IMG/VR virus record: IMGVR_UViG_3300031576_000032
Location: 6,188 to 70,187 of that record
Origin: a virus
Reading direction: 5' to 3' (one strand)
DNA length: 64,000 nt
The position numbers were made by a program, and so were the translations under genes. Under the pieces are notes generated by a model. It was given only the letters and a program-made list of their open reading frames with translations. It was not told the origin of the DNA and did not search any database. Each line of letters opens with the position of its first letter. Position 1 is the stretch's first letter. This document shows positions 1-48,141 of this stretch, in pieces.

Positions 1-1587
1 CGATAACGCCCCGTCGCGGGTCGGAAACGGTCCCCCGAACGCCCGGGACAGGTCCCAATCGGAAGGCTCCCATTCTTCGAACCTCCGACGCCGTCCTAGG
101 ATCGTCTTTACCCATCCGCGCTCGTTAGCTCGGTCCGACGCGACCCGTAGCGTGTTCCGGGCGAATGGGAACGCGGCGTAGTATTTGTCGAGGAACCCTT
201 GGGCCTCATCGACCGGGAGCTTCAGTTGCGCTGCGGTTTTCTTCGTTCCCATCCCGTAGATCACCCCGAAGTTAATCGTCTTCGCTTTCTGCCGGCCTGC
301 TTTTCCGACAAGTCCCGCACGGTCCGCGCACTGCTGATGAAAGTCGATCTTCGGGTTCTTCTGATACTCCGACCGGAACTCGGCCGCGCCTTCTCCCAAA
401 GCATAATGAGAAAAAATCCTAAATTCTGCCTGGTTGTAATCGGCCTTCCCCCAGTCGCATCCCTCTTCTGGGATAAAGATCGATCGGCACAAAGGGCCAA
501 GGACCGCATCGCGTGCCGGGATGAACTGAAGGTTTGGATGGGACGACGAGAACCGTCCCGTAACGGTCCCATACTCGTCGGACTTCATCGGGTTAAACGA
601 CCCGTGGATTCTTCCGTCGACGAGTTGCTCCTGCATCTGCCCGACAAGAAACGTCGAGATGAACTTATCGGTTCCGCGACACTCAAGGATCATCTTCGCA
701 ACGGAATGATTTACCGTCTCGAGCCACGGCTTCGTGAACGACGGGGCATCGGTTTTCGGGGTGCGTGGGTACGGTATACCCAAAGAATCGAACATCCCCC
801 CGAGCTCCCGCGCGTTCCATACGGAGATGTTTTTCCCCGCGATTGCGTCGAGCCCGGCCTTCGTCTCGACGAGTTTCTTCCGAAACGCGACGATCGAGTC
901 GTCAAGTTTCTTCGTATCGATCCGCACCCCGTTCTGCCTCATCCGAAGAACGAGAGGAAGTAGACGCGACTCAAGGTCGAATAGTTCGGTCATCCCCTCC
1001 GCCGCGAGCAACTTCTCCTGAAGAGGAAGAATCTTTAACGGAAGAAGAACGTCCTGGATCGCGTACTTCGCGACGACGGACCCAGGGAGTCGCCAGAGGT
1101 GTTTCTTCGGATCGCCCTTGTATCCCCGCCGCGCGCATTCTTGCGTTATCTCATCCTCGGCCTTCGACTCGCCCTCGAGGTACCGAACCGAGATATCCCC
1201 GAGGTTGTAGAACCCCTGAAGATTTTCGTTCACCAAAGGTTCAGCGATCTGTACATCCGCCCACGGGCCAACGATTTTCACTCCGGCCTTCTCGAGGTAG
1301 TCAAAATCGTAGAGAAGGTTCGCGCCGACTTTCCGCTGCGACTTCCGACCGAGTTCACGGCCGAGCCACTTGAGGACTTTTTTCGGGTCGAGGTTCTCGC
1401 CGTCCTCGTGTCGGATCGGGTAGTAGTTTGAGAACCCGTCGTCGGTCGCTACCGCGACGCCTGCGATATACCCATCGCGATACGTCCCCGGACCTTTCGC
1501 TACGAGGTCGTCGTCTCGCGTCTCGATGTCCACCGCGATTAATTTTGCAGACGATAAATCGGGAAACAGGTTATCGACCTTCTTCAA
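1..1587 (-). CDS. polA: DNA polymerase family A with 3'-5' exonuclease domain (3' end beyond window edge)
   Basis: Hand translation (not in ORF track): TTG at 1587 overlaps the upstream TGA; MKKVDNLFPDLSSAKLIAVDIETRD (Exo I), TVTGRFSSSHPNLQ, motif A DYNQAEFRIFSHY, motif B RQKAKTINFGVIYGMG. Confidence 0.93.
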   Translation of the reverse strand, partial: MKKVDNLFPDLSSAKLIAVDIETRDDDLVAKGPGTYRDGYIAGVAVATDDGFSNYYPIRHEDGENLDPKKVLKWLGRELGRKSQRKVGANLLYDFDYLEKAGVKIVGPWADVQIAEPLVNENLQGFYNLGDISVRYLEGESKAEDEITQECARRGYKGDPKKHLWRLPGSVVAKYAIQDVLLPLKILPLQEKLLAAEGMTELFDLESRLLPLVLRMRQNGVRIDTKKLDDSIVAFRKKLVETKAGLDAIAGKNISVWNARELGGMFDSLGIPYPRTPKTDAPSFTKPWLETVNHSVAKMILECRGTDKFISTFLVGQMQEQLVDGRIHGSFNPMKSDEYGTVTGRFSSSHPNLQFIPARDAVLGPLCRSIFIPEEGCDWGKADYNQAEFRIFSHYALGEGAAEFRSEYQKNPKIDFHQQCADRAGLVGKAGRQKAKTINFGVIYGMGTKKTAAQLKLPVDEAQGFLDKYYAAFPFARNTLRVASDRANERGWVKTILGRRRRFEEWEPSDWDLSRAFGGPFPTRDGALS

Positions 1588-2069
1588 CGATCATCGCCTT
1601 CTTTTGATTCATCCTCGATCGTCCAGGGGATACCAAGCGATGTGAACAACTCCTTCGACCTCTTCGACTTTTGATAGTCGATCTCCGCGTGGACGGCGAC
1701 GATCCCAACGTTAACGAGAAGCTTCGCGCAGTCGTAGCACGGGAACGCGGTGCAGTACACTTCGGCCCCGTCGATTGGCGGACCGTGCCGCGCGGATTGC
1801 GCGACCGCGTTCGCTTCGGCGTGGACGGTCCGGACACAGTGAGCAGTTTCTTTATACACGATCTGATCGGAGATAGTTGCTCGTTGTTCTATTTCGTGTC
1901 CGACGTCGTCGCAATGAGGCGCCTTCGACGGGGACCCCGAGAATCCAGTCGCAAGGACTCGTCCGTCGCGGACGAGTATCGCACCTTTTTTCCCTCGGTT
2001 ACACGTCGACCGATCCATCACCGCCCGGACGATCGAAAAGTAATATTCCTTCCGCGTCGACCGATTCAA
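1584..2069 (-). CDS. dCMP deaminase (cytidine/deoxycytidylate deaminase family)
   Basis: RSTCNR..GAILVRDGRVLATG, HAEANA and PCYDC Zn motifs; probable TTG start at 2069 overlapping the upstream stop (TTGA); ORF-track N-terminal extension is likely spurious. Confidence 0.9.
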   Translation of the reverse strand: MNRSTRKEYYFSIVRAVMDRSTCNRGKKGAILVRDGRVLATGFSGSPSKAPHCDDVGHEIEQRATISDQIVYKETAHCVRTVHAEANAVAQSARHGPPIDGAEVYCTAFPCYDCAKLLVNVGIVAVHAEIDYQKSKRSKELFTSLGIPWTIEDESKEGDDR

Positions 2070-2794
2070 AATATGTTCCTCCCTTCGAGGTCCTTCGCGA
2101 ACGCGTGAAGCGATCCGATGAAATGGACGAACCGCGACGGCGTCGCATTGATTTCCGATGCGACGTGTTGAAGAAGCCGAGTCGTCAGGTAAACATCCGA
2201 TGCGAAGAACTTCATGAAATCGCACGACCTTTGGTTGTAGATCAATGTCAGGTTCCCGTTCCGGAGGACGAATTGGTACGATATCGAGCACGGCACCCGG
2301 TCGCGCCCGCCCCAGTTCATCATGTCTTGGTGGACGTCGTACATCGTCATAATCGCTTGCCGGGTCGTCGGACGACGTTTCAACTCGTCGATGACGTACG
2401 GAAGTTGCGCTTGCCATCTCTCTCCGTACGAGTAAGAGAACTTCCCGTCCCGAATAAACTTTCCCCATTTCCCTGAGTCGAGTTTCCAGGATTCCCCAGG
2501 ATTCAATGGTCCCCGGGGACCAGCGTTTTCCCGAGTTCCAAGGAGCCGTTCGACCTCTTCCCGTTTTGCCCATTCAACGTTCCCGTTCAGATACTTCATC
2601 ATCTGCTCAAGCCGGACGTTATCAAACGAGGCCGTCAAGGAGTAAGCGTAACCTGTCAGTTCGATCGCTCGGTACCCGGGATCGTCCCCAACGAATTTGT
2701 CTTGCACGGTCTCGGTGTGGTACCGGACACCCATTTCAAACAGGTCCCGCTCGACCTCCTTCACCATCTCGACGGGGTTCTGGTAGATCCTCAT
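2066..2794 (-). CDS. Thymidylate-synthase-fold enzyme, probably dCMP-specific (hydroxy)methyltransferase
   Basis: TRQAI, catalytic PCS, YNQRSCDF, GSLHAF; Asp (FASD) at the position of E. coli TS Asn177. Confidence 0.8.
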   Translation of the reverse strand: MRIYQNPVEMVKEVERDLFEMGVRYHTETVQDKFVGDDPGYRAIELTGYAYSLTASFDNVRLEQMMKYLNGNVEWAKREEVERLLGTRENAGPRGPLNPGESWKLDSGKWGKFIRDGKFSYSYGERWQAQLPYVIDELKRRPTTRQAIMTMYDVHQDMMNWGGRDRVPCSISYQFVLRNGNLTLIYNQRSCDFMKFFASDVYLTTRLLQHVASEINATPSRFVHFIGSLHAFAKDLEGRNIF

Positions 2795-3678
2795 CGCGTC
2801 GCCTTGTCCTTCCGGAACACGAGGATCGTCTGGTACAGCGGCGGCTTCTTCCCCGTCTTCTTCTCGTACGTGTTGAGGAACATCGTCGTTGGGTAATGTC
2901 TCAAGATCGCCGTTCCCTCGTGCGTAAGCCCGAGTTCGGTTAGGAGATCCCCGATCTTCACGTGAAGAAGAAACGGCTCGCCCTTACGCATCATATCCTT
3001 GACAGAGACGACGAACCGGCCGTTCTTCTTCATCCGGGCGATGCACTTCTGGTAAATGTCTCGGATCGCGGCCCAGTACGCGTCGTTCTCCCGAAGGAGG
3101 CCGAGGTTCGCATACCGTTTGTCGTACCTCATCTCCTTCGGTTGTTTCTTCATATCTTTTTCGGCATATCCGAAGAAGCTCTCTCGGACGTCCCCTGAGT
3201 ACGGCGGGTTGTTGACGACGAGCGAGAACCGAGGAAGATCCGCGATCACCGACTCGATCTCTCGGGCGTCTCGGTGAACGACCCGGAACTTCGCGCCATT
3301 CGAGACCGCGGCGGCGCGGGCGAGGTTCGCTTCGACGACGTCGAAGAACTCGATCTCACACCCCGCCGCGTTCCGGCCCATCCGGAGCGCCTCGACGGGA
3401 GTCGTTCCCGCCCCGACCATCGGATCGAGGACCCAGTCGTTCTTTTTCGTAAACGTCTGGATCGCCCACCGAGCGACATGGAGCGGCGTCTTCGCCGGAT
3501 GCTTCTTTTCGATCGGATCGTAAAACGATTTCCTCTCGAGCCGGGAGTAGTTCCGTCCGTCAGGACGAATCAGCTCCCCGAGAAACGGCTTCGAGTATTT
3601 GCTAACGCCGACGTAGTCCGTCGGCATATTCGGTCCGGCGTTCAATAACTGGACCGGTTCGATCTCGTTCTTGTCCAT
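2791..3678 (-). CDS. N4-cytosine/N6-adenine type DNA methyltransferase-like protein
   Basis: HPAKTP, SAM-binding VLDPMVGAGTT, catalytic NNPPY. Confidence 0.8.
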   Translation of the reverse strand: MDKNEIEPVQLLNAGPNMPTDYVGVSKYSKPFLGELIRPDGRNYSRLERKSFYDPIEKKHPAKTPLHVARWAIQTFTKKNDWVLDPMVGAGTTPVEALRMGRNAAGCEIEFFDVVEANLARAAAVSNGAKFRVVHRDAREIESVIADLPRFSLVVNNPPYSGDVRESFFGYAEKDMKKQPKEMRYDKRYANLGLLRENDAYWAAIRDIYQKCIARMKKNGRFVVSVKDMMRKGEPFLLHVKIGDLLTELGLTHEGTAILRHYPTTMFLNTYEKKTGKKPPLYQTILVFRKDKATR

Positions 3679-3690
3679 CCGCTCCCTCCC

Positions 3691-5211
3691 TTAAAAGTTC
3701 GACAACACCTTTCCCGACGGGACCGACGGGACCGACGGGACCGACGGAACGATCGGCGCGGGTTTCACATCTCTCGGCTTCGGTTGTGGTTTCTTCGGTT
3801 CAGCCGGAACTGGCGGAGTCTCCAGGGGGACCTTTCTCGGTCGTCCCCGGCCGCGCTTAGGAATCGACTGGAACTCCGCGACGGACACCGCGGCGCGTTC
3901 GACCTTCGGCCTCCGTTCTTTCTTCGGCTTAGGCGGTTTGTACGTCGGATCGATCGCGTTATCCCAACGCGTCAAGTCCTCGGGTTCGACTCTCATCGGC
4001 AGGTGGCACCGAAATAGCATCGTGCACTCTTCGCACGCTTTCGGTTGATTCGAGTACCCGACGTTTTCGCAGTACCACTGTTTCGCGTCGTCGACATATC
4101 GGTCGGGCGGCAAAAATCGATGTCCCGACGACTCGAACTTCACACCGTTGATATGAGCGGCGATCTGTTTTGCGATGTACGCGTTGAACTGGACGGGCAT
4201 CGCTTTCCCCGTCTGCTTTACGATCGTCGCATCTTTCGTGTGGTTCCATTCGCCTTTCTCGTTCAGGATCGTCCCGTAGAAGATGAAGTCGTCGGGGAAC
4301 CCCTGGATTCTCGCGCGCTCGCGGATCGTATACGGAAGGCACCGCTCCCCGTGGATCGCCGGAGCGCCCCCGGTTAGGACCGCCGCGTGCCCGTCCCAGT
4401 GATTCCGGTATGTCCCGATCCGTTTCTTGTAGGACCCGTCTGCCGTCTGGTACGGAAGGACCGTCCCGGGACGGCCGTCCTTAAAGAACTTCTGGACCTC
4501 GCGCCACGTCGCCTTCTCCCCGCGTTTCGAAAAATGCATCGCTCGGTCACATCGTCCATCGAGGACGTGAGGGTCATGATTCGGAATCGAATGGCTCCCC
4601 TTCTTTTGGGGATCGGGGAGATCCCCGATAAGAGTCTGGACCGTTTCCTTGTTGTCATACTCCCCGGGCCGAAACGCGAACTTCTCCTTCTTCAGCGCCC
4701 CGATCAGGAAGAACCGCTTTCGAAACCGTTGGACGTTTCCGTAATGAAAGTTCGACACCCACTCAGGGAACAGATCGTACTCCGGAAGAAGCGACGCATA
4801 CTTCTCCATCGAGAACGCGATGAACGATTTCGGAAGATCGTCCATCACGAAAAACCTCGGCTTCACCCGCGCGACGAGATCGACGAACAAAGGAATGTCC
4901 CCGGGGTCGTCGCCACGGTTCGAATTCATTCCATCGAGTTGCGAAAAGTTCCCGCACTCTGGGTGTCCGAAAGCAACGTCGATCGTCGGTAACGCCGGGG
5001 CCTCCTCGATCGAATGGACAAAGAACGCCCCCGGGAAGTTCTCAAGAAACGTATTCTTCCCGTCCTTGTCTTTCTTGTGGTAGTACTTCCGCCACTCGAT
5101 ATTTCCGAGGACCTCGAAACCCCCCATCCGCGCTCCGACTAACATTGAACCGATCCCGCACGTTAACCCAACCGCCTTCAACTTCTCAATACTCGGCGGT
5201 TTCCTCGGCAT
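3691..5211 (-). CDS. Atypical C5-cytosine DNA methyltransferase-fold enzyme
   Basis: Motif I GLTCGIGS, IV GHPECGNFS, VI MDDLP (normally ENV), VIII QRFRKRFFLIG, IX RERARIQGFPD, X QTGKAMPV (normally GNA/GNS); Cys cluster and AT-hook in C-terminal tail. Confidence 0.8.
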   Translation of the reverse strand: MPRKPPSIEKLKAVGLTCGIGSMLVGARMGGFEVLGNIEWRKYYHKKDKDGKNTFLENFPGAFFVHSIEEAPALPTIDVAFGHPECGNFSQLDGMNSNRGDDPGDIPLFVDLVARVKPRFFVMDDLPKSFIAFSMEKYASLLPEYDLFPEWVSNFHYGNVQRFRKRFFLIGALKKEKFAFRPGEYDNKETVQTLIGDLPDPQKKGSHSIPNHDPHVLDGRCDRAMHFSKRGEKATWREVQKFFKDGRPGTVLPYQTADGSYKKRIGTYRNHWDGHAAVLTGGAPAIHGERCLPYTIRERARIQGFPDDFIFYGTILNEKGEWNHTKDATIVKQTGKAMPVQFNAYIAKQIAAHINGVKFESSGHRFLPPDRYVDDAKQWYCENVGYSNQPKACEECTMLFRCHLPMRVEPEDLTRWDNAIDPTYKPPKPKKERRPKVERAAVSVAEFQSIPKRGRGRPRKVPLETPPVPAEPKKPQPKPRDVKPAPIVPSVPSVPSVPSGKVLSNF

Positions 5212-5855
5212 TAGTACTCGCTCCGTTGCCGGAACCTATTGACTTCGGACTTCTTGAAGTACAACTCGAACACGGCATCCGCAGACATCCCGACGGTCCA
5301 AGACAGAAGACCAAGTCGCCCGACTGACTGGACGACGAGATCCTCAAACTTGTCTACGTCGGTTGAAACGTGCGACTGTTTCCACGGTTTATTCTTCAAG
5401 CAGTTCATCGCGAGGCCGAGGGTTTCGACGACCTTCCACGCAGAAAACATCACGACCGTTTCGCTATCCAACCCGGTATTTTTCCCCGGAATAATGATAT
5501 CGAGACGATCTTTTCCGAGGTTATCGTCGACAACGTCGGCCGGGCCGAGTCCGATCTCGATCACGAGTTCGACGAGAAAATGCCAGGCGTCGGCGACTTC
5601 CTCCTTACAGTGGACGGGATCAGCCATCGACTCAATCGCTTCGGCGAGTTCCTCAGTTACTCGCCAGGCCAGATCTTTCAGGAAGTATTGGCATTTCGGG
5701 TCGTCGATATGAAACGTCGCGGGTAGAATCCCCCGACCGATCCCGGCTTTTCCCTCGATCTCGCTGTACTTCTTCGACAATTCCCGCTGCCGGTCGAAAA
5801 TCATCTCGAGCCGGTCGCCTGTCGGCTCGGGGGCGGTCGCGTCGTTCACGTTCAT
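5211..5855 (-). CDS. Dimeric all-alpha NTP pyrophosphatase (dUTPase/dCTPase/MazG-like)
   Basis: EELAEA..EEVADAWHF acidic motifs, KNKPWK, C-terminal YFKKSEVNRFRQRSEY; ATG at 5855 overlaps upstream stop (ATGA). Confidence 0.8.
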   Translation of the reverse strand: MNVNDATAPEPTGDRLEMIFDRQRELSKKYSEIEGKAGIGRGILPATFHIDDPKCQYFLKDLAWRVTEELAEAIESMADPVHCKEEVADAWHFLVELVIEIGLGPADVVDDNLGKDRLDIIIPGKNTGLDSETVVMFSAWKVVETLGLAMNCLKNKPWKQSHVSTDVDKFEDLVVQSVGRLGLLSWTVGMSADAVFELYFKKSEVNRFRQRSEY

Positions 5856-7219
5856 GTCGCGTAGGCCTTTCTGAAGGCGTCGATACACGCCATTCGCCAC
5901 TCGATCTTCTTCTCCCCCCTGGACCCTTCGATCTTCAGGGGAACCTTCTCACGATGTAGAATAGAAAGTGGAACGATGTCCGCGAACGCTTCCTTCAATA
6001 CTTCTTTGTGTTTCCTGCGTTCCCACGGGAGCGCGAGCGCGTAGTTCACGATCGGAAGGGCGAGGAACGGGCACCGGAGTTCGACCATCGAGAACATCAT
6101 CGTCCGGTCAAGCCGGGGGAGGTGGTAGTGGATCAACTCGTGAAACACGTCGGACTTTTGCGAGTCATACTCGGCCGTGCGACGGTATCCTCCGAACAAC
6201 TCGTCGGCCCCGTCCCCGGAAAGGACGACGTCAACCCCGGATTCTCGAACGGCCTTTCCTAGGTCGATTTGGGCCATCACCGAGCCGAGATCGACGGGGC
6301 ACTGGTGGATTTGAACCGCGACTTCTTTTTCGATCTCGACTGGTCGGTTGATCGCGATCATCTCGATTTCGCTTCCGGGGAACCGAAAGTCCAGATGTTT
6401 TAGGAAGTCGGCTTCGTCGTTCTCAACATGAAAGACTTTGAAGTCGGTCCGGACCTTCTTCATCATCTCGAAAACGATCGTTGAGTCGAGTCCGCCGGAA
6501 AGAAGAACCCCGACCGGAACATCCGACACCATTCGATTTCGGACAGACTCCTCGACGGCCGCACGAAGGTCCGTTCCAGTTGGGTATAACCCAAGTCCAT
6601 ACTGGTACGATTCCTTAAGCCGTCCGAACTCATCGTAGACTAGGATCGATCCAGGCGCAATCGAATGGATCTCGTTCCAGGGAGTCGACCGATCGTAACA
6701 ATATCCGAACCGCGCGACCCCGCCGAGGTACGTTTCGTTCAACGTCGACGGCCCGGCCTCGAGCAAAGGATCGATCTCGGACGATATCGCAAGCGCCGGA
6801 AGCGTTCGGTAGTAAAGCGGCTTCTTCGCGAGCGGATCGGTCACGACCGTAACGGTCTTCTTCGACGTGTCAATGAATACAAACGACCAGAACCCGTCGA
6901 ACCCGGCAAGACATTTCGGTCCAAACTTCTCCCACATCGCGAGGACGACGGCGAGGTCGTTCTTCGCCGCCGGGTCATACTTTCGGAAGTTGAACACTTC
7001 CCCGACCATCAACCCATACAGGTTCTTCGTACCGTGACGCATCGGCTGGTCGAACGTCTCGCTCAGCCCTTGAATCGGGAGCCGGGCGTGCGAGACGTAT
7101 ACGAGACCCGGTTGGAAGAACCTCGCGGTCGTCGTCCGTTTCCCCCGGTGCTCCAACTTTGCGGCCATCCTTTCGATGACGGATTTGTCTTTCCCAAAAT
7201 AGACGTTAATCCCGCACAT
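5852..7219 (-). CDS. Asparagine synthetase B-like glutamine-dependent amidotransferase / amide ligase
   Basis: N-terminal MCGI (Ntn Cys), HARLPIQG, GEVFNF, PP-loop LLSGGLDS, SGDGADELFGGY. Confidence 0.92.
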   Translation of the reverse strand: MCGINVYFGKDKSVIERMAAKLEHRGKRTTTARFFQPGLVYVSHARLPIQGLSETFDQPMRHGTKNLYGLMVGEVFNFRKYDPAAKNDLAVVLAMWEKFGPKCLAGFDGFWSFVFIDTSKKTVTVVTDPLAKKPLYYRTLPALAISSEIDPLLEAGPSTLNETYLGGVARFGYCYDRSTPWNEIHSIAPGSILVYDEFGRLKESYQYGLGLYPTGTDLRAAVEESVRNRMVSDVPVGVLLSGGLDSTIVFEMMKKVRTDFKVFHVENDEADFLKHLDFRFPGSEIEMIAINRPVEIEKEVAVQIHQCPVDLGSVMAQIDLGKAVRESGVDVVLSGDGADELFGGYRRTAEYDSQKSDVFHELIHYHLPRLDRTMMFSMVELRCPFLALPIVNYALALPWERRKHKEVLKEAFADIVPLSILHREKVPLKIEGSRGEKKIEWRMACIDAFRKAYAT

Positions 7220-7694
7220 AACCCAGAACCGTCATCCCTCTCCTCTTCAGGTTCTCGATCACGACGTCATATCTCATCGCGATTCGGACGATCTTATCCG
7301 ACACGACTTGAACGTGATTGTCTGGTTTGTAGCCTTTTTCGGACGACAGCCGCGCAAGCTTCTCACGAGCGTGAGCAATTAACGTATCGACCGACGGCCG
7401 GCAGTACACGACGAAGAACCCTTTCTCAACGAACCGCCGGGCCGTGTCGTCGATCTCTGATTGCTCGACAAGAAGTCCGTTCCGGACGACCGATCCGTAC
7501 ACTTGTTCGGAGATGAACGACGCCCGGTCAAGGACTTTCCCGTACCCCCGGAACTGCGTCGCGAACCGACCACGAAGGTCCTCCGCGTCCTTAGGCGGAC
7601 CTCCGGCGTGGATAATCTCGAGCCCGTGCTTACCGGCGAGGATCTTCGCGATAGTTGATTTCCCGGCCCCGTCGGGGCCTTCGATTATGATCAA
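7206..7694 (-). CDS. Deoxynucleoside monophosphate kinase (thymidylate-kinase-like)
   Basis: MIIIEGPDGAGKST P-loop, LDR motif. Confidence 0.82.
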   Translation of the reverse strand: MIIIEGPDGAGKSTIAKILAGKHGLEIIHAGGPPKDAEDLRGRFATQFRGYGKVLDRASFISEQVYGSVVRNGLLVEQSEIDDTARRFVEKGFFVVYCRPSVDTLIAHAREKLARLSSEKGYKPDNHVQVVSDKIVRIAMRYDVVIENLKRRGMTVLGYVRD

Positions 7695-7764: not shown

Positions 7765-8589
7765 TTAGTCGACGCGGGTGTACTTCCCGGACTCCTTGTC
7801 CCACGTCGTGTTGAGGTACTTGTCGCCCTTCGAACGCTTCTTCGTCCGAAGAATCGACATCGCCGTGTGGACGTTCGCCTCGTCCCAACCCGTCAACTTG
7901 CAAAGTTCCTCCCGCGTCCCGGTCTTCCGCGTCTTGAAGAAGTCACGGATCATCTGATACCGCGACGGCCCGCCCTCTTTCACCGCGGTTTTCTTCGCGG
8001 CCGGAACCGACTTCGTCGCAGCTTCCTTAGACTTCTTTCTGTTCGCCTTCTTCTCGTCTCCCATTTCATCTCCTTCGCCGGATTTCTCCAACGTGTGTGG
8101 GCCGCGGGTCCCTGCAACCGCGATCCGTGCGCCAAGGCTATCCGACTTTCCAGGGAAAATCTTTTTGCAATCAAAGCAGTAACACTGAATCAACGGAAAC
8201 GTCGATGTCGGAACCCGAGCGGCGGTGTTTTTCCCATCGCAGTCGGGACACGGAACCTTTCCCTTGTGATGAACGAACTTCTCGACTCGATTCGACGTCA
8301 CCTTTTCCGACGGGGGAGCCGCGACGCGCGACTCGTTTCCTTTCTCGGTCAACGAGTACATGAACCGTTTCCCGTCGACGTTCTTCTCCTCCGCCTTAAG
8401 AAACCCGAGCGCGACGAGAATCCGGACCTCGTCCCAGACCTTGTCCGAGTTCGTCGAGATTTCTTCCATCACGGTCGCGACGACTTCGTCAATCCGGACC
8501 TCGCCTTTTCTTGGGAGCACCCTAAGGATCGCGTCGCGAAGCGTCCGACGTTCGGGGCCGATGTCTACTGGCTTAACGGGTTCATCCAT
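7765..8589 (-). CDS. Putative DNA-binding protein: N-terminal winged-helix-like region, CxxC/CxxC Zn ribbon, C-terminal domain paralogous to 28935-29321 and 31901-32263
   Basis: GFLKAEE..MYSLTEKG wing-like segment; CPDC..CFDC; GWDEANVHTAMSILR..RSKG matches GFDEANVRVAFGIMR..RSKG; GGAGG upstream. Confidence 0.6.
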   Translation of the reverse strand: MDEPVKPVDIGPERRTLRDAILRVLPRKGEVRIDEVVATVMEEISTNSDKVWDEVRILVALGFLKAEEKNVDGKRFMYSLTEKGNESRVAAPPSEKVTSNRVEKFVHHKGKVPCPDCDGKNTAARVPTSTFPLIQCYCFDCKKIFPGKSDSLGARIAVAGTRGPHTLEKSGEGDEMGDEKKANRKKSKEAATKSVPAAKKTAVKEGGPSRYQMIRDFFKTRKTGTREELCKLTGWDEANVHTAMSILRTKKRSKGDKYLNTTWDKESGKYTRVD

Positions 8590-8710: not shown

Positions 8711-10171
8711 TTATATTCCATAGTATCTATCCGATTGCGCAGACATCAGGAAAAGGTTTTCCCGCGCCCGCGTCGCCCCGACGTAGAATACACGGGCCTC
8801 GGCGTCGGGGTTTCGGATACATCCCTCTTCCGTCCTAGCCGTTTGATCGACCGTTAAAAGTACGTTATCTGCTTCTCCTCCCTTAACGCCATGGATCGTA
8901 TCGACATGAATCCTCGGCCTCGTCGTGATCCGCTCCCCGCGCCTAAGGATCGCGACGTAGTACGCGCGCTTTCGCGCCGACATCCCATCGAACGCCTCGT
9001 GCCAGATCCTCGGAGCACGCTCCTGAGTAAAGTCTTCGATCCGGTACATCTTCGCATCGTCGACAGACTTGATCGGCCGTCCGAGGGCCTTCGCGACCTT
9101 GTCCGCGTCCGCGCCCCCGACGTGCTCGCCTTTACGGAGTCCTTCGTAAGACCGGATCGTTCGGATATCCTCGACCGACACCGAAGACCCGTCCCGTGTA
9201 GAGTATGGTACCCCCTGGTATTCGCATTCTTCTTCCAGGGGGGATAAGAAGCACCGGTTCCGCGCGAGAAGGTACCACGATCCAGTTGTTAGGTCGACTT
9301 GGCTCGGCGACGCGACGCGCTCAACTCGGCCGTCGGCGTCGCGTTCTTTCCACTTCTTGTCGTACCGTTTCCCGATCCGAGATGCGATTTCGTTCGCTAT
9401 TTTCGCGACGGATCGAGGGACGCGGCGGGACTCAGGAAGAACTTGTAGATCGTCGACGCCGATTGAAAGAAACTGTGCGACGTCCGCGCCCGACCATTCA
9501 TAGATCGCCTGGTCGTCGTCGCCTGCGAAGTAAATCCGTTTCGCGTTTCGGAACGCAACGAATACGACTTTCCATTGCGCGGCGGTAAGGTCCTGCGCTT
9601 CGTCGACGATCGCGACGTCGACGTCTAAGGGATCGTCCTTCCCCGAGAATATCGAAAGCATATCAGCGAAGTCGACGAGCGAATGTGCCTCTTTGTATTT
9701 GTCTAGTGTTTCTTTGAACTGGAGAAGTTCGTACCACGGGACGGGGTCGACGGTCGCCTCCCACGTCTCACGGAGCGATCGGCCCGTCGATCGGGCAAGG
9801 TTCTCGAGAAACAACATCCGGTCCCCGGCGAGCGCAATATCCCCAGCTTCGGACTCAAGATTCCCCGAAATCCGAATCCCGAGAAGCCGACCGATCGCCC
9901 AGATATGGGGCCTACCTAGTACTCTATTTCGAGACAGACCGAGCGCCTGGAAACATGTCGAATGAATCGTCCGGAAGTACGGGAGATCGTTATCGACAAG
10001 GGACAAGTCCTTCTTCGCCCGGTCCCGGGCCTCGGTTACTGCTTTCTTCGTGAACGAAACGAACGCAATCCGGTCCGGGTCCGTCCCGTCTCGGATCTCG
10101 CGCCGGGCGACGTCGATCAATGCGTGCGTCTTTCCCGCGCCGGGACCTCCGAGAATCAACGTCCGCTTCAT
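8711..10171 (-). CDS. UvrD/Rep-like SF1 helicase
   Basis: GGPGAGKT Walker A, SFTKKA, IVDEAQD, GDDDQAIYEWSGA, TIHGVKGGEADNV, YVGATRAR; ATG at 10171. Confidence 0.92.
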   Translation of the reverse strand: MKRTLILGGPGAGKTHALIDVARREIRDGTDPDRIAFVSFTKKAVTEARDRAKKDLSLVDNDLPYFRTIHSTCFQALGLSRNRVLGRPHIWAIGRLLGIRISGNLESEAGDIALAGDRMLFLENLARSTGRSLRETWEATVDPVPWYELLQFKETLDKYKEAHSLVDFADMLSIFSGKDDPLDVDVAIVDEAQDLTAAQWKVVFVAFRNAKRIYFAGDDDQAIYEWSGADVAQFLSIGVDDLQVLPESRRVPRSVAKIANEIASRIGKRYDKKWKERDADGRVERVASPSQVDLTTGSWYLLARNRCFLSPLEEECEYQGVPYSTRDGSSVSVEDIRTIRSYEGLRKGEHVGGADADKVAKALGRPIKSVDDAKMYRIEDFTQERAPRIWHEAFDGMSARKRAYYVAILRRGERITTRPRIHVDTIHGVKGGEADNVLLTVDQTARTEEGCIRNPDAEARVFYVGATRARENLFLMSAQSDRYYGI

Positions 10172-10530
10172 TTTCTCGACTGCCTCGCCCCACAACCACA
10201 CGATCGACGAACAAGTATTTGTGGCCGGGTGTAACGCTTCGACTTTCCGCAGTCGCACGACACGATCCAGAGGGGAGGATATTTGTCCCCGTCCCGGCCG
10301 ACGACGACAAGTTTCCCGAACCGTTTCCCTACGATATCCTTCATTTTCCTTCGGCCCTTATGCGTTTCGGAGTCGCGCCGATCGACCCCCATAATCGACA
10401 GGATCTTGTTGACCGTCGAGTGGGAGATCTTGAATTCGATCGCGATCTTTCGGAGGCTAAGGCCGTTCTCGTACATCTTTCGCATCCTCGGCCCGACCTT
10501 CGAGTAATCGAGAATCCGGTTCCTCCCCAT
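10168..10530 (-). CDS. HTH protein with the N-terminal module of an HNH/AP2-type homing endonuclease; no nuclease domain
   Basis: MYENGLSLRKIAIEFKISHSTV helix-turn-helix; DIVGKRFGKLVV..WIVSCDCG..SCGC then stop. Confidence 0.6.
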   Translation of the reverse strand: MGRNRILDYSKVGPRMRKMYENGLSLRKIAIEFKISHSTVNKILSIMGVDRRDSETHKGRRKMKDIVGKRFGKLVVVGRDGDKYPPLWIVSCDCGKSKRYTRPQILVRRSCGCGARQSRK

Positions 10531-10531
10531 T

Positions 10532-12043
10532 TTAGAAGTCCTCCTTCTTTTCGATCGGGGGCACCCCGAACGGTTCATCTTGCTTCGCCGGGGCCGGTAT
10601 CCCCCAACACCGGACAAATCGACCGTTCACTTTGAACGCCGACGTTTTCGCTTTCGCTTTAACGAGATAGTTCCACGCGTCTCGTGGATGCACCCGAAGT
10701 TTTCGTTTTTCCATGAATGATAATAGGTCGCTCGACCGGAAGTACACGAATCCGTCTTCCTGGAACGGCATCCCCCTGAGAAGATCGGACTTTTCCTTCG
10801 CCGGGGCGCGGTCGACGCAGAACTGTTCCATCATAAATAGAAACTGCCCCGCCGTACTCGCGTCGTCTGGGGCGTGGACTTCCTCGACTTTTTCGAGAAG
10901 CCCCCCGATGATATCGTCCCACGATTCTCGCTTTATTCGTCGTTGCATCTGGTTCGTCTGTTCGACAACGACGTTCACGAACTTGGTCTGGCTCATAAGG
11001 ATTTCGACCTCCCCGAGCCGGACCCGTTTCCCATTGACGTTGATGATCCAAGTCGGCGGGTCTGTAAGGATCTTCGTTAGCCCGTCGAGCGACACGCCGG
11101 GGTCGGTCGACGATCCTGAAATCCCGAACTTCCGCCGGACACACATCGCCCGGTTGCACACCTCAACGATCGGTGAGTCCTTGCACGTGTAAAGGTATTC
11201 CTTCCGACTTAGCGATTTTATCGTCGCTTCAACTTCGGTCCCGGGGAGCGGGGGCTTCATATACTTCCGGTTCAATTCTCCGAGTTTCTCTTGCCATGCG
11301 TCCCCATACCTCTTTTTGCAATATACGCCGAGGTTGAATAACGCTTTGTTTCTTGACCCCTCCGGAAACCCGACTTTTGCGAGATGCTGTAAGCATGGGG
11401 GGCCGCTTTCAAGGTCCGGGTCTTCCGGAACCTTTATCCTCGCGAATGCCTCGACTGTCGTCGCCTTCTCGTCGGCGTAGTCGAGGAACGCGTCCGGCGG
11501 TAGCGGTTCCCCGCCCCGAATCGCATACCGAGTCGTCTCAGCCCCGCCGAAGTACGGCATATTGATCCACGATCCGCAATCATCGTCGCCCGCGAGTTCG
11601 GCCTGTTTCGGGAATATCTCGCTCGACATATACCCGAGGACGACGGCGAACTCCGCAAGCCGGTCCCGGACAAACCCCGCCGGGGCCGGTTCGGAGAAGA
11701 ATAGGTAAAGGTGCGCCCCCTTTGATTTCGTTTGGCAAGGTACCAGGGGGAACCTGGCTTCGACGATTTTCTTCTCTAAGGCCGAAAGGTCTAAGTCGTA
11801 CACGTCAATGTCGATCGCGCCGAATATGCACGTTCCGTCGTCTCGAATAGGAACGATCCCGATTCCTTTCTTTCCCTCAAGATGCGATTCCCAGTGTTTC
11901 GCCGTTGCCTTCTCTTTAATCGTTTGCGCTCGTCCCCCGAGCTTTCCCCGTTTTCCTTCTTTTTTCGTCCCGACGAGATAAGTCCCGTGAGCCCTTTCGA
12001 GCCCACGGAACCTCTCGTAGAAACGATCCGCGATCCCCGCCAC
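10532..12043 (-). CDS. Primase (AEP/prim-pol type with C-terminal PriCT-like domain)
   Basis: GAIDIDVYD, TKSKGAHLYLF, PPCLQ, GSRNKALFNLG; replication-module context. Confidence 0.8.
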   Translation of the reverse strand: MAGIADRFYERFRGLERAHGTYLVGTKKEGKRGKLGGRAQTIKEKATAKHWESHLEGKKGIGIVPIRDDGTCIFGAIDIDVYDLDLSALEKKIVEARFPLVPCQTKSKGAHLYLFFSEPAPAGFVRDRLAEFAVVLGYMSSEIFPKQAELAGDDDCGSWINMPYFGGAETTRYAIRGGEPLPPDAFLDYADEKATTVEAFARIKVPEDPDLESGPPCLQHLAKVGFPEGSRNKALFNLGVYCKKRYGDAWQEKLGELNRKYMKPPLPGTEVEATIKSLSRKEYLYTCKDSPIVEVCNRAMCVRRKFGISGSSTDPGVSLDGLTKILTDPPTWIINVNGKRVRLGEVEILMSQTKFVNVVVEQTNQMQRRIKRESWDDIIGGLLEKVEEVHAPDDASTAGQFLFMMEQFCVDRAPAKEKSDLLRGMPFQEDGFVYFRSSDLLSFMEKRKLRVHPRDAWNYLVKAKAKTSAFKVNGRFVRCWGIPAPAKQDEPFGVPPIEKKEDF

Positions 12044-16860: not shown

Positions 16861-17021
16861 CTTCCGCTTCCAACTTCCATCGCAATATAGGAGAGAAAGA
16901 ATAGAACTGAAGCTTTCCAAGCACGGTCTTCCTGAAAAATTAACCAAACACCAAAACAAAAGGAACCTGCTAACCCATGAATGACGAACGATAAATCGAG
17001 AATAAATCGGGGAGAAATCAT
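16857..17021 (-). CDS. Small two-TM membrane protein
   Basis: Two hydrophobic stretches; ATGA overlap with helicase stop. Confidence 0.5.
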   Translation of the reverse strand: MISPRFILDLSFVIHGLAGSFCFGVWLIFQEDRAWKASVLFFLSYIAMEVGSGR

Positions 17022-18508
17022 GGCTTCATCACCGCGTCCGCTAGCGACTTCGCCCCGAGAAGAACGTCTCGGATTCTTTCGTCGACCGTCCCGGCGCACT
17101 CGAGATCGACGTACGTCACGGAATGCTTCGTCCCGATCCGGTGCGCGCGGTCCTCGGACTGATACCGCTGCTCGTAGCTGAACGTGTTCGAGTAATAGAA
17201 CACCGTCTCCGCCGCGGTTAGGGTGACGCCGATTCCGGATTGTTGTTGCCCGACGAGGAACCGGACGCGGACGTCTTCCTGGAACGCCTGAACGTTGAAG
17301 TCTCGTTTATCCCCTACAATCCCTCCATGAAGTTCGACAACGGCCTCGCTTCCAAACTTCTCTTTAAGCCCGACCGTTATCGCTTCAATCTCCGTCCGGA
17401 ACCGAGCCCAGATAATCGCTTTCCCGGGATAGTCCTCAGATACAAGATCGATCAGCGCGTCAAGTTTCGGGTTTCCCCCTGGAACGGGCTTAACTTCGAT
17501 CTTTCCAGGGGTATACGCGACTTCGATCGCGTCGAGATCGACTTCGCCTTCTTGGATCGTGACGGTCGCCGGGACGAACCCTCCGAGAATTTGCTGGCAC
17601 CGAAGGAGCCGGACGATTTGAAGGTTAGCAAGAACTTCGAACGAGTCGAAGACGATTTCCCCGTCCTTCATAAGGTCGGCGTACATCTTCTTCTGTTCCG
17701 GCGTCATCTCAACGGCGACCCGTTGGTAGATCTTGTCGGGGATATCGAGACATTCGGCTTTCGTTTTCCGGTAAGAGTGATTCTGAATCTTCGACTTCAG
17801 TTCGTCGAGGCGGACGTACTTAACGAGTTCCTCGTAGGCTCTCGAAGCGCCCGCGGCCCGCGTGTACTGTTTCTCGAACACTCCGTACTGGTGTTTGAAC
17901 CCGTAGAACGACGTAAAACCGAGCACCGACGGGTCTAGGAATCGAAACTGAGCGAACAAGTCAAACGGCGTCTGCGTAACCGGGGTCCCGGTCATCGCGC
18001 GCCGGAACTTCGCGCGCTTCCCTAATAGGATCACCCGGCGCGTACGCTGCGACGTCGGGTTTTTGATTCGGCTCGACTCGTCGACGACCATCAGCGACTT
18101 TCGCTCGAGGAGGAACTTCTCGGCGGCGTCGAACGCTTGGCCCCGGTTTGAAAACGCTTCGACATTAATACAGAATATCGCGAGGTCCTTCGACTTTAGG
18201 AGTTCTTTCCAAGCCTTCCGCCAACGGTCCGTTTTCGCTTTCCCGGGGTCCCACTCGAGAACTTTGTAATCGCACCCAAGATGAATAGGGATCTCGACCC
18301 GGGGCCAGTTCCGATACACGACTTTCGGCGCGACGACGAGGACCCCATCGATACGGCCGGCAGCGAATAGAAGCCCGGCGGTGTCTAGAGCGATCTTCGT
18401 TTTACCGAGACCTTGTTCGAGAAAAATCCCGAACGCCTTTCGATCCCACGAAAGGTTTAAGCACTCGGTTTGATGGTCGTAGGATTTCGTTTTCTGTTTG
18501 TATTTCAC
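17018..18508 (-). CDS. SNF2-family (SF2) helicase
   Basis: EQGLGKT, VVDESSRIKN, MTGTPV, GIGVTLTAA, QSEDRAHRIG. Confidence 0.93.
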   Translation of the reverse strand: MKYKQKTKSYDHQTECLNLSWDRKAFGIFLEQGLGKTKIALDTAGLLFAAGRIDGVLVVAPKVVYRNWPRVEIPIHLGCDYKVLEWDPGKAKTDRWRKAWKELLKSKDLAIFCINVEAFSNRGQAFDAAEKFLLERKSLMVVDESSRIKNPTSQRTRRVILLGKRAKFRRAMTGTPVTQTPFDLFAQFRFLDPSVLGFTSFYGFKHQYGVFEKQYTRAAGASRAYEELVKYVRLDELKSKIQNHSYRKTKAECLDIPDKIYQRVAVEMTPEQKKMYADLMKDGEIVFDSFEVLANLQIVRLLRCQQILGGFVPATVTIQEGEVDLDAIEVAYTPGKIEVKPVPGGNPKLDALIDLVSEDYPGKAIIWARFRTEIEAITVGLKEKFGSEAVVELHGGIVGDKRDFNVQAFQEDVRVRFLVGQQQSGIGVTLTAAETVFYYSNTFSYEQRYQSEDRAHRIGTKHSVTYVDLECAGTVDERIRDVLLGAKSLADAVMKP

Positions 18509-19866
18509 GTCGCCCCTTTCGCGGACGAACGGAAGTTTACACCACCGCCGCGTCTTTGTAAACTCTTTTTTACGAATCGGAGGACGGAAGCGACCGCGCG
18601 CCCGGCGTTCCGACCGAACCGCGCCGCGGCTTCGTCCGCGCCCCGCGTTTCTGCGGGCCTCGTGCGGCCGAAGCCGGGGGGTCGCGGGTCCGAACGCGGC
18701 CGGAACCGGGAGGCCAGGGGGGAATTACGGACTACCCCCTGGCGACTCCGGTCGTCGACCGCGCCGACTCGAAACTCGGGGGGATCGACTCTTACCTTTA
18801 TCGTCGGCGTCGGGCTTCCCTGTTCATCAAGAAACGAAACAAGCGCGTGGCCGATTCGAAGGACGGAGATTTCGGTCGCTGGGTCTAGGCTCTTCCCGCG
18901 CGGCATCGTATCGGCCGCAGCCTTAATCGCGCGCCAATCTTTAGGCGTCGCGGCCCGCATCGCATGTTGTACCCGCGAACCAAGCTGCCCGAGAACGACG
19001 GACGGTAAGTCGCTTGGCGACTGAGTACAGAACCAGACGCCGACAGACTTCGACCGGATGATTCTTACGATTCGTCCTATCCGATCGACGAGCGGTCTCG
19101 GCGCGTCTTCAAATAGGAGATATGCTTCATCAATAAACATCGCGAGTTTAGGAATCGCGAGGTCCCCGACTTCAGGGAGATTCTCGTACAAGTCCGAAAG
19201 AATCCACGTCATCACCGTCGCGTATACCCGAGCGTTCTTTACGAGGTTGTCCGCGACGAGGACCGTAACGAACCCTTGCTCGTCATCGGTCTGTAGAAAT
19301 AGGTCGTCCCGCGCGATCGACTTCGGTCCGAAAATCAATCCGCCGCCATCGGCTTCAAACGTAGCGATTGACCTTCGGATCGCAGCAACCGTCGCGCTCG
19401 ATACGAGACCGTGATCGATCGAGACAGACTTCCGTTCCTCGTCGACAGACCGAAGGACTTCTTGTACGTCCTTCAACGTATCGAAAGGGAGGTTTTCGTC
19501 GGCGGCGTACCGAAACGCGACGCCGAGAACGTCGGCTTGAACGCCCGTGACGCCGATCGTGCGGGCGAACAACCCCGCCCCGAACCGGCGGACCGGCACC
19601 CGGAACGGATGGCCGCGCTTACCTTCGGGGTCCCAAAACACAGTCGGTAACGGTCGCGCACCGGAGCAAACTCCGGCAACGTCGCCCTTTACATCGGGAA
19701 CAAACGTCGGGACTCCGGCCCGCGACAATCCTTCGACGAGACGCATCATCGAAACGGTCTTCCCCGCGCCCGTAGCGCCAGCGATTAACCCGTGCCGGTT
19801 CGCGCGGGCCAGGGGGAGCGACGCTTCGGTTCCCTTATCGTCGCGGCCGAGGACGATATACGTCAT
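18505..19866 (-). CDS. HerA/FtsK-superfamily ATPase, DUF853 (YjgR-like)
   Basis: NRHGLIAGATGAGKT, DVKGDVAG, FIDEAYLLF, RSKSVGVWFCTQSPSDLP..LGQLGSRVQHAMRA. Confidence 0.88.
   Translation of the reverse strand: MTYIVLGRDDKGTEASLPLARANRHGLIAGATGAGKTVSMMRLVEGLSRAGVPTFVPDVKGDVAGVCSGARPLPTVFWDPEGKRGHPFRVPVRRFGAGLFARTIGVTGVQADVLGVAFRYAADENLPFDTLKDVQEVLRSVDEERKSVSIDHGLVSSATVAAIRRSIATFEADGGGLIFGPKSIARDDLFLQTDDEQGFVTVLVADNLVKNARVYATVMTWILSDLYENLPEVGDLAIPKLAMFIDEAYLLFEDAPRPLVDRIGRIVRIIRSKSVGVWFCTQSPSDLPSVVLGQLGSRVQHAMRAATPKDWRAIKAAADTMPRGKSLDPATEISVLRIGHALVSFLDEQGSPTPTIKVRVDPPEFRVGAVDDRSRQGVVRNSPLASRFRPRSDPRPPGFGRTRPAETRGADEAAARFGRNAGRAVASVLRFVKKSLQRRGGGVNFRSSAKGAT
18534..18562 (-). promoter_or_regulatory. 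Sigma70-like promoter upstream of SNF2 helicase
   Basis: TTTACA-N17-TAAACT. Confidence 0.55.
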
Positions 19867-43536: not shown

Positions 43537-44217
43537 GTGCCAGCGACGCGTCTCGAGAGAGTCCTTGGTCCGGGAGGGAAGCGAGCGACCCTCGTTTCGT
43601 CTCACAAGGCGTGGATCGTTCCGCGAATCTGGCCCGAGTCGACTGTCGCGATCCTCGGCGGGGGGCCGTCGCTTCCGTCGGCTGAGGATCTCAAGAAGAT
43701 TCCGCTTTCATGGAAGACGATCGCGGTCAACATGGCGTTTCGGTCCGCGCCATTCTCTGACGTTTTGTTCTACGGAGATCCCCATTTCCCGTCGATCACT
43801 CGTGCGACGGACGGCCCGACGATCGACGATTTCGCGGGGCTCGTTGTCACGCGCGTCGCTCCGGGAGATGGGAGCGCGATGTTCGTCGCGTGGGAGTCGG
43901 GGATCGATGGGATATCGAAAGATCCGACGCGACTTCGATGGAACCGATCGAGCGGCGCGTGCGCGATCGGACTCGCGCGGCATTTCGGCGCGAAGAGGAT
44001 TGTCCTTTTTGGGTTCGACATGCGAATCGTCGACGGGAGGAAGAACTTCCATTCGTGGTATGGACGCGATTTGAAGAATCCATTCGAACAAATGCTCGAA
44101 CCGTTCGGCGCGATTGAACGAGACCTTCACGAGGAACAGATCGAGTGCATTAACGCGACGCCGGGTTCTGCGATTCGATCACTCCCGATTGTTGACCCGG
44201 TGAGCCTCTTCGTATGA
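43537..44217 (+). CDS. DUF115/MptE-like Rossmannoid protein (glycosyltransferase-associated)
   Basis: VAILGGGPSL, IAVN, SSGACAI, GAKRIVLFGFDM, INATP. Confidence 0.7.
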   Translation: MPATRLERVLGPGGKRATLVSSHKAWIVPRIWPESTVAILGGGPSLPSAEDLKKIPLSWKTIAVNMAFRSAPFSDVLFYGDPHFPSITRATDGPTIDDFAGLVVTRVAPGDGSAMFVAWESGIDGISKDPTRLRWNRSSGACAIGLARHFGAKRIVLFGFDMRIVDGRKNFHSWYGRDLKNPFEQMLEPFGAIERDLHEEQIECINATPGSAIRSLPIVDPVSLFV

Positions 44218-44870: not shown

Positions 44871-44892
44871 ATCCGGTTCCAGTGTGGATAAC

Positions 44893-47846: not shown

Positions 47847-47848
47847 CG

Positions 47849-48133: not shown

Positions 48134-48141
48134 GGAGACCG

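Follow-up and report, generated by a model that had tools for sequence, protein, structure and literature searches.

Positions 1 to 7694 of a 64,000-nucleotide stretch of an IMG/VR virus record (IMGVR_UViG_3300031576_000032, 70,187 bp, completeness estimate 82%) carry an eight-gene operon on the minus strand, which we interpret as a cassette for cytosine hypermodification that works in two arms, one on nucleotides and one on DNA. The stretch, hereafter the window, covers positions 6,188 to 70,187 of the record. In our interpretation, to which we assign a probability of roughly 0.6, a pre-replicative 5-substituted deoxycytidine (dC) would be made with an amidotransferase step, and the base would then be tailored within DNA. 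Gene content, active-site residues, conserved gene order and a nested pattern of co-occurrence were all observed directly and form the basis of this interpretation. The operon comprises the following genes:

7206-7694, minus strand: P-loop deoxynucleoside monophosphate (dNMP) kinase, 162 amino acids (aa); candidate kinase for modified deoxycytidine monophosphate (dCMP)
5852-7219, minus strand: AsnB-like glutamine-dependent amidotransferase, 455 aa; Asn_synthase and GATase matches
5211-5900, minus strand: all-alpha nucleoside triphosphate (NTP) pyrophosphatase, dUTPase_2/MazG type; candidate dCTPase, whose true start may be downstream of 5900
3691-5211, minus strand: C5-cytosine methyltransferase (MTase) homologue, 506 aa; Pfam DNA_methylase, E 1.1e-16
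2791-3678, minus strand: exocyclic-amine MTase (N6_N4_Mtase), 295 aa; Pfam N6_N4_Mtase, E 1.6e-19
2066-2794, minus strand: dCMP-type thymidylate synthase (TS) homologue, 242 aa; Pfam Thymidylat_synt (PF00303), E 6e-15
1584-2069, minus strand: dCMP deaminase; Pfam dCMP_cyt_deam_1, E 2.9e-17, and PHROG 174 (dCMP deaminase), E 4.8e-36
1-1587, minus strand: family A DNA polymerase (PolA) with 3'-5' exonuclease domain, N-terminal 529 aa; Pfam DNA_pol_A, E 1.9e-48

Stops and starts overlap or nearly abut throughout the operon, with overlaps at the kinase/AsnB-like (14 nucleotides, nt), C5-MTase/pyrophosphatase, N6/N4-MTase/TS, TS/dCMP deaminase and dCMP deaminase/PolA junctions. As read from the sequence, the dCMP deaminase starts with TTG at 2069, inside the TS stop (TTTGA) and after a GGGAGGA ribosome-binding site. 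The PolA open reading frame (ORF) runs past the window edge, on to contig position 5849, and no further modification genes were found in the 6.2 kb of contig upstream of the window. An earlier reading made from the letters alone (the sequence-only reading) had named a kinase, an NTP pyrophosphatase, dCMP deaminase, a polymerase, two MTases and an amidotransferase in this operon, and each of them was recovered with Pfam and PHROGs.

Thymidylate Synthase Homologue

The TS homologue was aligned with E. coli ThyA and T4 gp42, using sequences from annotated records (E. coli positions are prefixed Ec). Its residues 188-200, the peptide QRSCDFMKFFASD, place Asp200 (codon 2195-2197) at the position of Ec Asn177 and T4 Asp179, and phmmer alignment to solved TS chains gives the same register, confirming the assignment made in the sequence-only reading. 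That reading had further taken Asp at this position as the dCMP determinant, in agreement with the dCMP preference reported for N177D (PMC13326640; PMC8670742). The catalytic Cys (Ec Cys146) is kept as Cys169 and the dNMP-binding Arg-Ser pair (Ec166-167) as Arg189 and Ser190, while Asp192 corresponds to Ec Asp169, Ser170 to Ec His147, and Arg166 to Ec Leu143 and T4 Asp145; the C-terminal ~45 residues of ThyA are missing. Positions 177 and 147 are described as the most discriminating in metagenomes (PMC8670742).

The same signature recurs in the relatives. Asp at both Ec177 and Ec169, together with Arg at Ec143, occurs in the window's ORF and in all 70 TS-homologue ORFs collected from beside AsnB-like genes (survey loci L003 and L015 are one contig, as are L004 and L006). 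Since Asp at Ec177 is present in every one of these 70 ORFs, it is not a chance substitution.

By sequence, the best solved relative is 9iqu/9iqc (E 2e-11), named phage HY126 dCMP hydroxylase in the fold library, and the T4 dCMP hydroxymethylase matches at E 2e-5. However, the 9iqu chain reads Gln-Asn where the TS homologue and its 70 relatives read Cys-Asp (Ec168-169). D169N is the mark of the flavin-dependent 5-hydroxy-dCMP synthases (PMC13326640), and this signature is absent from the TS homologue and from all 70 relatives. Because of the Ec177 rule and of Cys-Asp in place of the Gln-Asn of 9iqu, we read the TS homologue as a dCMP-specific, folate-type enzyme. With regard to its product, bulky hydrophobic residues at Ec143 correlate with methyl products, non-hydrophobic residues with non-methyl products, and Asp or Glu with hydroxymethyl products (PMC13326640). 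The Arg found here is polar and non-hydrophobic, yet it is not the acidic residue of a T4-type hydroxymethylase. The enzyme is probably a dCMP C5-hydroxymethylase making 5-hydroxymethyl-dCMP.

Amidotransferase, Kinase and Pyrophosphatase

The AsnB-like protein combines an Ntn glutaminase domain with an N-terminal Cys (MCGI) and an AMP-forming PP-loop (SGGLDS) domain, with Pfam matches to Asn_synthase (1.6e-40), GATase_6 and GATase_7; its PHROG, 16728, has no assigned function. The hallmarks of asparagine synthetase B are kept (N-terminal Cys glutaminase, SGGxDS, GxGxDExFGGY). However, the protein scores below the curated asparagine-synthase cut-offs, with 213.8 vs 267.1 bits for TIGR01536 and 160.7 vs 499 for PRK09431, and on the curated NCBIfam cut-off a true asparagine synthetase was rejected. 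The family, of about 450 aa, is almost only metagenomic, with 6604 matches at E<=1e-10 among 7999 candidates scored and at least 394 stretches in IMG/VR. The best match in a collection of 50,697 phage records is 25.6% identical, and 25.6% is also the identity to the amidotransferase of phage TurkishDelight. A complex prediction of the TS homologue with the AsnB-like protein scored 0.00 and was counted neither way.

The family's predicted isoelectric point (pI) is acidic (median 5.7), vs 9.4 and 9.6 for the two MTase-like proteins, and this split is weak evidence that fits a small-molecule enzyme on the one side and DNA enzymes on the other. We place the AsnB-like enzyme at the nucleotide level, because its gene is coupled to the TS homologue and not to the DNA MTases and because the protein is acidic, and the basic MTases at the DNA level.

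The kinase matches PHROG 761 ('thymidylate kinase') at 1.2e-11, its matches to (d)CMP kinase and dTMP kinase being weak, and an equivalent gene occupies the same position in L003, L004 and other loci. The pyrophosphatase matches Pfam dUTPase_2 (4.6e-06) and PHROG 12184, nucleotide pyrophosphohydrolase (7.6e-26), and over its C-terminal 27 aa it shares 41% identity with the end of the T4 gp56 dCTPase (C-terminus; pairwise E 2e-4).

Proposed DNA-Level Transferases

Canonical C5-MTases read PCQ in motif IV, ENV in motif VI and GN(A/S)V in motif X. The C5-MTase homologue retains the PF00145 match and, in an AlphaFold2 model (predicted local distance difference test, pLDDT, 85.5), the C5-MTase fold, with target-normalised TM scores of 0.66-0.69 to M.HaeIII, M.HhaI and SpCmoX (8yf3), but departs from all three motifs: HPECG replaces PCQ with the Cys kept (Cys86, in GHPECG), D(D/N)L replaces ENV (Asp124, in FVMDDLP) and GKxMP replaces GN(A/S)V (Lys336, codon 4204-4206, in GKAMP). 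These altered motifs, including H-P-x-C-G, are invariant in 16 aligned relatives.

Lys336 aligns with the Asn of M.HaeIII GNAVP in a profile alignment, a position equivalent to M.HhaI Asn304 and SpCmoX Arg350, and with the Arg of GRAVPP in the CmoX-like gp123 of TurkishDelight, a Streptomyces phage, in a BLAST alignment. The TurkishDelight MTase reads SPPC, ENV and GRAVPP. In CmoX the motif X Arg binds the carboxymethyl group of carboxy-S-adenosylmethionine (Cx-SAM), and the engineered M.MpeI N374K accepts Cx-SAM (PMC12783734); Lys336 is therefore a genuine hint of a donor other than a methyl donor. The study of CmoX required SPPC and Arg350 (PMC12783734), so that the Lys-type clade, with GHPECG in place of SPPC and with a residue at motif X that is basic like that of M.MpeI N374K rather than Arg, would have been excluded from it. 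The match to 8yf3 is weak by sequence (E 6e-4) and ranks 37th by fold, and the top-listed match in the phage collection is 27% identical.

Two further features of the homologue are a Cys-rich region and a tail that is basic and rich in Pro and Lys. The tail, in the C-terminal 100 aa (window 3691-4000), follows a four-Cys region that is conserved in the family, contains an AT-hook-like GRGRPRK and PSV repeats, and is absent from most relatives. In one relative (L082:10956-13118, on the same contig as L214) the C5-MTase homologue reaches 720 aa by an insertion of ~300 aa directly before the catalytic Cys (HPE, insertion C...N, CGNFS), which is intein-like and has a homing-endonuclease-like middle part.

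In the exocyclic-amine MTase the motif order is permuted, with HPAKTP followed by an FxGxG-like LDPMVGAGTT and then the catalytic NPPY (NNPPY). With PF01555, an AdoMet-binding motif and (D/N/S)PP(Y/F), it has the predicted features of an N6-adenine or N4-cytosine MTase, and its relatives in the Protein Data Bank (PDB) are DNA MTases of these two kinds. NPPY is kept in relatives from PolA-type loci, and marine relatives read SNPY, GTPY or GPPY. In two contigs the C5-MTase homologue is fused to an NPPY/GPPY amino-MTase in a single ORF, of 863 aa (L003:5413-8004, equal to L015) and of 751 aa (L004:5749-8004, equal to L006); these fusions therefore link the two proteins functionally.

Gene Neighborhoods and Distribution

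Neighborhoods of the AsnB-like gene were surveyed in the best 80 of 394 IMG/VR relatives by tblastn with the window's proteins. The TS homologue is present in 66 of the 80, dCMP deaminase in 60, an N6/N4-MTase-like gene in 28, the C5-MTase homologue in 14, the pyrophosphatase and PolA in 13 each and the kinase in 10. Where both genes occur, the TS end lies at -19 to +2 nt from the AsnB-like start in 49/66 loci, and in nine of the 14 loci that lack the TS homologue, the contig ends within ~230 nt of the AsnB-like gene. Two architectures were found: that of the window, in PolA phages, and a TS-AsnB-dCMP deaminase order in marine T4-like phages that carry PolB, UvsX, a gp41-like helicase, ribosomal protein S21 and ThyX. 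The pairing of AsnB-like and TS genes thus spans two unrelated phage types. One of the marine genomes is complete (G002, 157 kb with terminal repeats); it has TS-AsnB and is devoid of PF00145, PF01555 and CmoA.

In the complete 157-kb marine T4-like genome (L063, 3861-11553), genes for KdsA-like, KdsB-like, phosphomannomutase, cytidylyltransferase-like and UDP-glucose/GDP-mannose dehydrogenase proteins flank TS-AsnB, and S21 and ThyX genes lie near TS-AsnB in related loci. In the part of the marine lineage that has such acidic-sugar genes, the AsnB-like enzyme might instead amidate a sugar acid.

Neighborhoods of the TS homologue were taken from the best 80 of at least 561 IMG/VR relatives, and contain the pyrophosphatase in 60, PolA, placed after the cassette, in 54, dCMP deaminase in 47, the kinase and the C5-MTase homologue in 22 each, AsnB-like in 20 and the N6/N4-MTase in 6. 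The layout for making a modified deoxynucleotide and removing the canonical one, which the sequence-only reading had recognized in the window, is therefore a conserved one (pyrophosphatase, PolA and deaminase counts above). The slot between the pyrophosphatase and TS genes is occupied by the C5-MTase homologue, by a phrog_34294 protein or by a phrog_13667 protein. Around the Lys-type C5-MTase homologue (48 loci), AsnB-like is present in 45/48 and TS in 42/48, with motif X Lys in all 46 loci where this position is covered; in the three loci lacking AsnB-like the sequence is cut beside the gene. In a sister clade, the C5-MTase homologue reads HPKCG with motif X Arg, or HP(S/K)CG with Lys, and stands beside TS without AsnB-like. 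The gene sets are thus nested, from the TS homologue to AsnB-like to the Lys-type transferase.

No cultured representative of the module was found among the 50,697 records of the phage collection. Of the cultured phages, those of Clostridium perfringens, such as CPAS-15 (37% identity), come closest. The CPAS-15 gene beside the TS homologue that is labeled 'colanic acid biosynthesis glycosyltransferase WcaC' was considered as support for a hydroxyl handle and rejected. This gene belongs to phrog_34294 (function not assigned in PHROGs), and a model of its IMG/VR relatives (pLDDT 90.2) has a divergent TS fold with 9iqu, MilA and T4 dCMP hydroxymethylase as best matches; the glycosyltransferase argument is therefore void. 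Proteins of phrog_34294 (L126:5240-6004 and relatives; L002:7208-7957, in CPAS-15) have an invariant Cys and adjoin the dCMP-type TS homologue, so that these loci have two TS-fold genes in tandem.

Proposed Pathway

Taken together, we hypothesize that the all-alpha pyrophosphatase converts dCTP to dCMP and that the TS homologue then adds a one-carbon unit at C5 of dCMP, most likely by hydroxymethylation from methylene-tetrahydrofolate as in T4 gp42. The AsnB-like enzyme would use ATP and glutamine-derived ammonia to turn the TS product into a nitrogen-bearing derivative. Our best guess for this derivative is 5-aminomethyl-dCMP, formed via an activated 5-CH2-O-AMP, which would be the simplest chemistry because the glutaminase is fused to an adenylating domain; alternatively, the enzyme may form an amide on some carboxylate. 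The dNMP kinase and host enzymes would raise the product to the triphosphate for incorporation by the phage PolA, while, as in the T4 pathway, dCMP deaminase would supply the dUMP from which dTMP is made. Within DNA, tailoring of the new base, or of residual bases, might fall to the basic C5-MTase homologue and the NPPY MTase. The substrates, the products, the order of the steps and the extent to which dC would be replaced are inferred from the gene set and its residues.

The sequence-only reading had argued that a C5-MTase would be redundant if C5 of all cytosines were already blocked, and that the combination therefore points to a multi-step base. This argument gains support from the non-canonical motifs IV, VI and X of the C5-MTase homologue, and from linkage, in that the Lys-type enzyme accompanies AsnB-like and TS genes in nearly all of its loci and AsnB-like accompanies TS in 66/80.

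Several points weigh against the proposed pathway. The product of the TS homologue is uncertain, because Arg at Ec143 differs from the Asp or Glu of T4-type hydroxymethylases. In human ASNS, an acidic cluster of Glu364, Asp367 and Glu368 binds the amino group of aspartate (PMC6748925). Our reading of the AsnB alignment finds the cluster kept in the AsnB-like protein as Asp336, Asp339 and Glu340, and therefore an amino-acid-like or other carboxylate substrate is possible. Enzymes of the AsnB family are known to adenylate carboxylates rather than alcohols, and we know of no precedent in the family for adenylation of an alcohol. Further, full replacement of dC at C5 would deprive a Cys-dependent C5 transferase of its normal substrate. 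Five AsnB-like loci (L017-L020 and L067) have full flanks and no TS homologue nearby, and are true exceptions to the pairing. Finally, the surveys cover the best-scoring loci only, and the retrieval patterns for the TS and C5-MTase sides were built from the very motifs in question.

A more specific form of the pathway, which we consider rather unlikely, is a DNA counterpart, on cytosine, of the xm5U bases of tRNA, i.e., 5-(methyl- or carboxymethyl-)aminomethylcytosine. Here 5-aminomethyl-dCMP would be made before replication and its side-chain nitrogen alkylated in DNA by the Lys-type transferase, which would transfer methyl or carboxymethyl to this nitrogen and no longer to C5; the NPPY enzyme, where present, would add a further methyl. 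The nested distribution of TS, AsnB-like and Lys-type transferase genes would then mirror the order of the pathway, and the sister-clade transferase without AsnB-like would alkylate the oxygen of 5-hydroxymethylcytosine.

Alternative Explanations

The cassette may instead combine two independent systems, namely a T4-like pre-replicative pathway to 5-hydroxymethyl-dC (or 5-methyl-dC) and a DNA-level pathway of the CmoX/CmoY type, in which the Lys-type enzyme would use host Cx-SAM to form 5-carboxymethylcytosine and the AsnB-like enzyme would convert it to 5-carbamoylmethylcytosine. We consider this unlikely, although it is consistent with the position of Lys336 at SpCmoX Arg350 and M.HhaI Asn304, with the carboxymethyl binding by the CmoX Arg and the acceptance of Cx-SAM by M.MpeI N374K (PMC12783734), and with the presence of AsnB-like in 45/48 Lys-type loci. 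A ligase cluster with a glutamine-amidase domain has been described with a putative function (PMC12783734), and TurkishDelight has the order MTase (SPPC, motif X Arg), glutamine amidotransferase, MTase. In E. coli, SpCmoX could rely on the CmoA of the host (PMC12783734), and a host CmoA is a possible source of Cx-SAM here. On the other side, CmoA (TIGR00740) had no match in this genome, in five marine records or in any of 34 Lys-type records, among them 13 that are >=90% complete. The Methyltransf_25 protein of the window (46424-47128) is not CmoA-like by NCBIfam. Against two systems also stand HPEC and D(D/N)L in place of SPPC and ENV, the distant relationship to 8yf3 in sequence and fold, and the low identity of the AsnB-like protein to the TurkishDelight enzyme. 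Moreover, the C5-MTase homologue occurs in just 14/80 AsnB-like loci and is absent from one complete genome, and the sister clade, with motif X Arg or Lys, stands beside TS without AsnB-like.

Alternatively, every protein of the cassette belongs to a large known superfamily, and the content could be ordinary: a plain dCMP hydroxymethylase or methylase (T4-like or XP12-like), orphan MTases against restriction, and asparagine synthetase as an auxiliary metabolic gene. The canonical NPPY of the N6/N4-MTase, the kept catalytic motifs of AsnB and the occurrence in T4 of 5-hydroxymethylcytosine together with a Dam methylase (by annotation) agree with this explanation. It is nevertheless distinctly unlikely, as AsnB-like and TS genes are translationally coupled across unrelated phage lineages, the AsnB-like protein falls under the curated cut-off, the C5-MTase homologue invariantly departs from PCQ, ENV and GN while being tied to AsnB-like and TS, and C5-MTase/N6/N4-MTase fusions exist in some relatives. 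It is extremely improbable that the TS homologue works as a genuine thymidylate synthase, making dTMP from the dUMP of the adjacent dCMP deaminase. Its Pfam and PHROG matches are to 'thymidylate synthase' and the deaminase gene lies directly downstream, but it has Asp rather than Asn at Ec177 and Ser rather than His at Ec147 and lacks the TS C-terminus. In addition, it scores 19-58 bits against NCBIfam TS equivalogs with cut-offs of 108-427 (best model 57.9 vs 174.55), and marine relatives carry ThyX too.

Relation to Known Systems

Pre-replicative modification of pyrimidines by TS homologues, followed by tailoring, is known from phages; the gene combination and the enzyme variants of the present cassette do not appear in the literature that we searched. 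The hydroxymethyl-dC pathway of T4 consists of the gp56 dCTPase, the gp42 dCMP hydroxymethylase, the gp1 dNMP kinase and the cd dCMP deaminase. The cassette resembles it in having a TS homologue of the dCMP type (Asp at Ec177, C-terminus shortened), an all-alpha NTP pyrophosphatase (gp56-like at its C-terminus in the window), and a dNMP kinase and dCMP deaminase beside the polymerase. However, it has Arg rather than Asp at Ec143, its match to gp42 reaches only E 2e-5, and instead of a glucosyltransferase, none recognizable as such being found in the cassette, there are the AsnB-like and two MTase-fold proteins. Likewise, the cassette shares Asp at Ec177 and dCMP type with the 5-hydroxy-dCMP synthases RB69 gp48, DLP3 gp80 and HY126 AfhB (PMC13326640), which include the nearest solved relative of the TS homologue, but lacks their diagnostic D169N.

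With the CmoA-CmoX-CmoY system (Synechococcus phage S-B43; PMC12783734; PDB 8YF3) and its TurkishDelight variant, the cassette has in common a C5-MTase homologue, a basic motif X and an asparagine-synthetase homologue. Unlike these, it has Lys rather than Arg, HPEC rather than SPPC, D(D/N)L rather than ENV and no CmoA gene; its amidotransferase is tied to the TS homologue and not to the transferase, and the enzyme families are only remotely related. Thymidine hypermodification, in which 5-hydroxymethyldeoxyuridine is acted on by a kinase and then by amine transfer (PMC8989533, PMC13229309), offers a parallel in its TS-made hydroxymethyl handle, ATP activation and nitrogen nucleophile, and glutamine amidotransferases are among the genes associated with 5-hydroxymethyluracil hypermodification (PMC13229309, PMC8989533). 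In contrast, the proposed base here is cytosine and not uracil, P-loop 5-HMUDK and aGPT-Pplase were not detected, and the ATP domain is a PP-loop domain fused to a glutaminase.

In the literature that we searched, no link was found between an asparagine-synthetase homologue and a TS homologue in phage DNA modification, aminomethyl- or carbamoylmethyl-cytosine was not named, and DUF1599 together with an amidotransferase received passing mentions only. All pre-replicative cytosine pathways described in the cited papers end in hydroxymethyl, hydroxyl or methyl groups, which are then glycosylated or carbamoylated. What the module adds to these is an amidotransferase that depends on ATP and glutamine, and a C5-MTase fold that has been re-tooled. 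Uncultured viruses commonly carry it (at least 394 IMG/VR stretches for AsnB-like and at least 561 for the TS homologue). Phage hypermodifications determine which restriction and CRISPR defences work and are a source of enzymes for epigenetic sequencing. If the cassette does make a nitrogen-bearing cytosine, this would be a new natural DNA base and would imply that the asparagine-synthetase family, or else the C5-MTase fold, carries out a reaction new to it; it would also be a likely blind spot of sequencing-based virome surveys.

Genome Context

The window has a GC content of ~57%, and no tRNAs were found in it. From 1 to ~26,000 it is transcribed leftward and carries replication genes, and the remainder holds terminase, portal, capsid and tail genes. 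Directly upstream of the cassette, a protein of 274 aa that weakly matches a winged helix (7765-8589, minus strand) keeps its position in L003, L004, L014 and L070; it may serve as a regulator or as a partner that binds DNA. Within the replication module, adjacent genes encode a SNF2-family helicase and a HerA-like ATPase (17018-19866, minus strand), and the module also includes a UvrD-like helicase (8711-10258) and an AEP primase (10532-12043). In the structural module, a block of seven ORFs (43537-49122, plus strand) lies between capsid and tail-terminator genes; its contents include a weak MptE-like match, the Methyltransf_25 protein, a family 2 glycosyltransferase and a radical SAM protein, and it may serve to glycosylate the virion or form a second set for modification.

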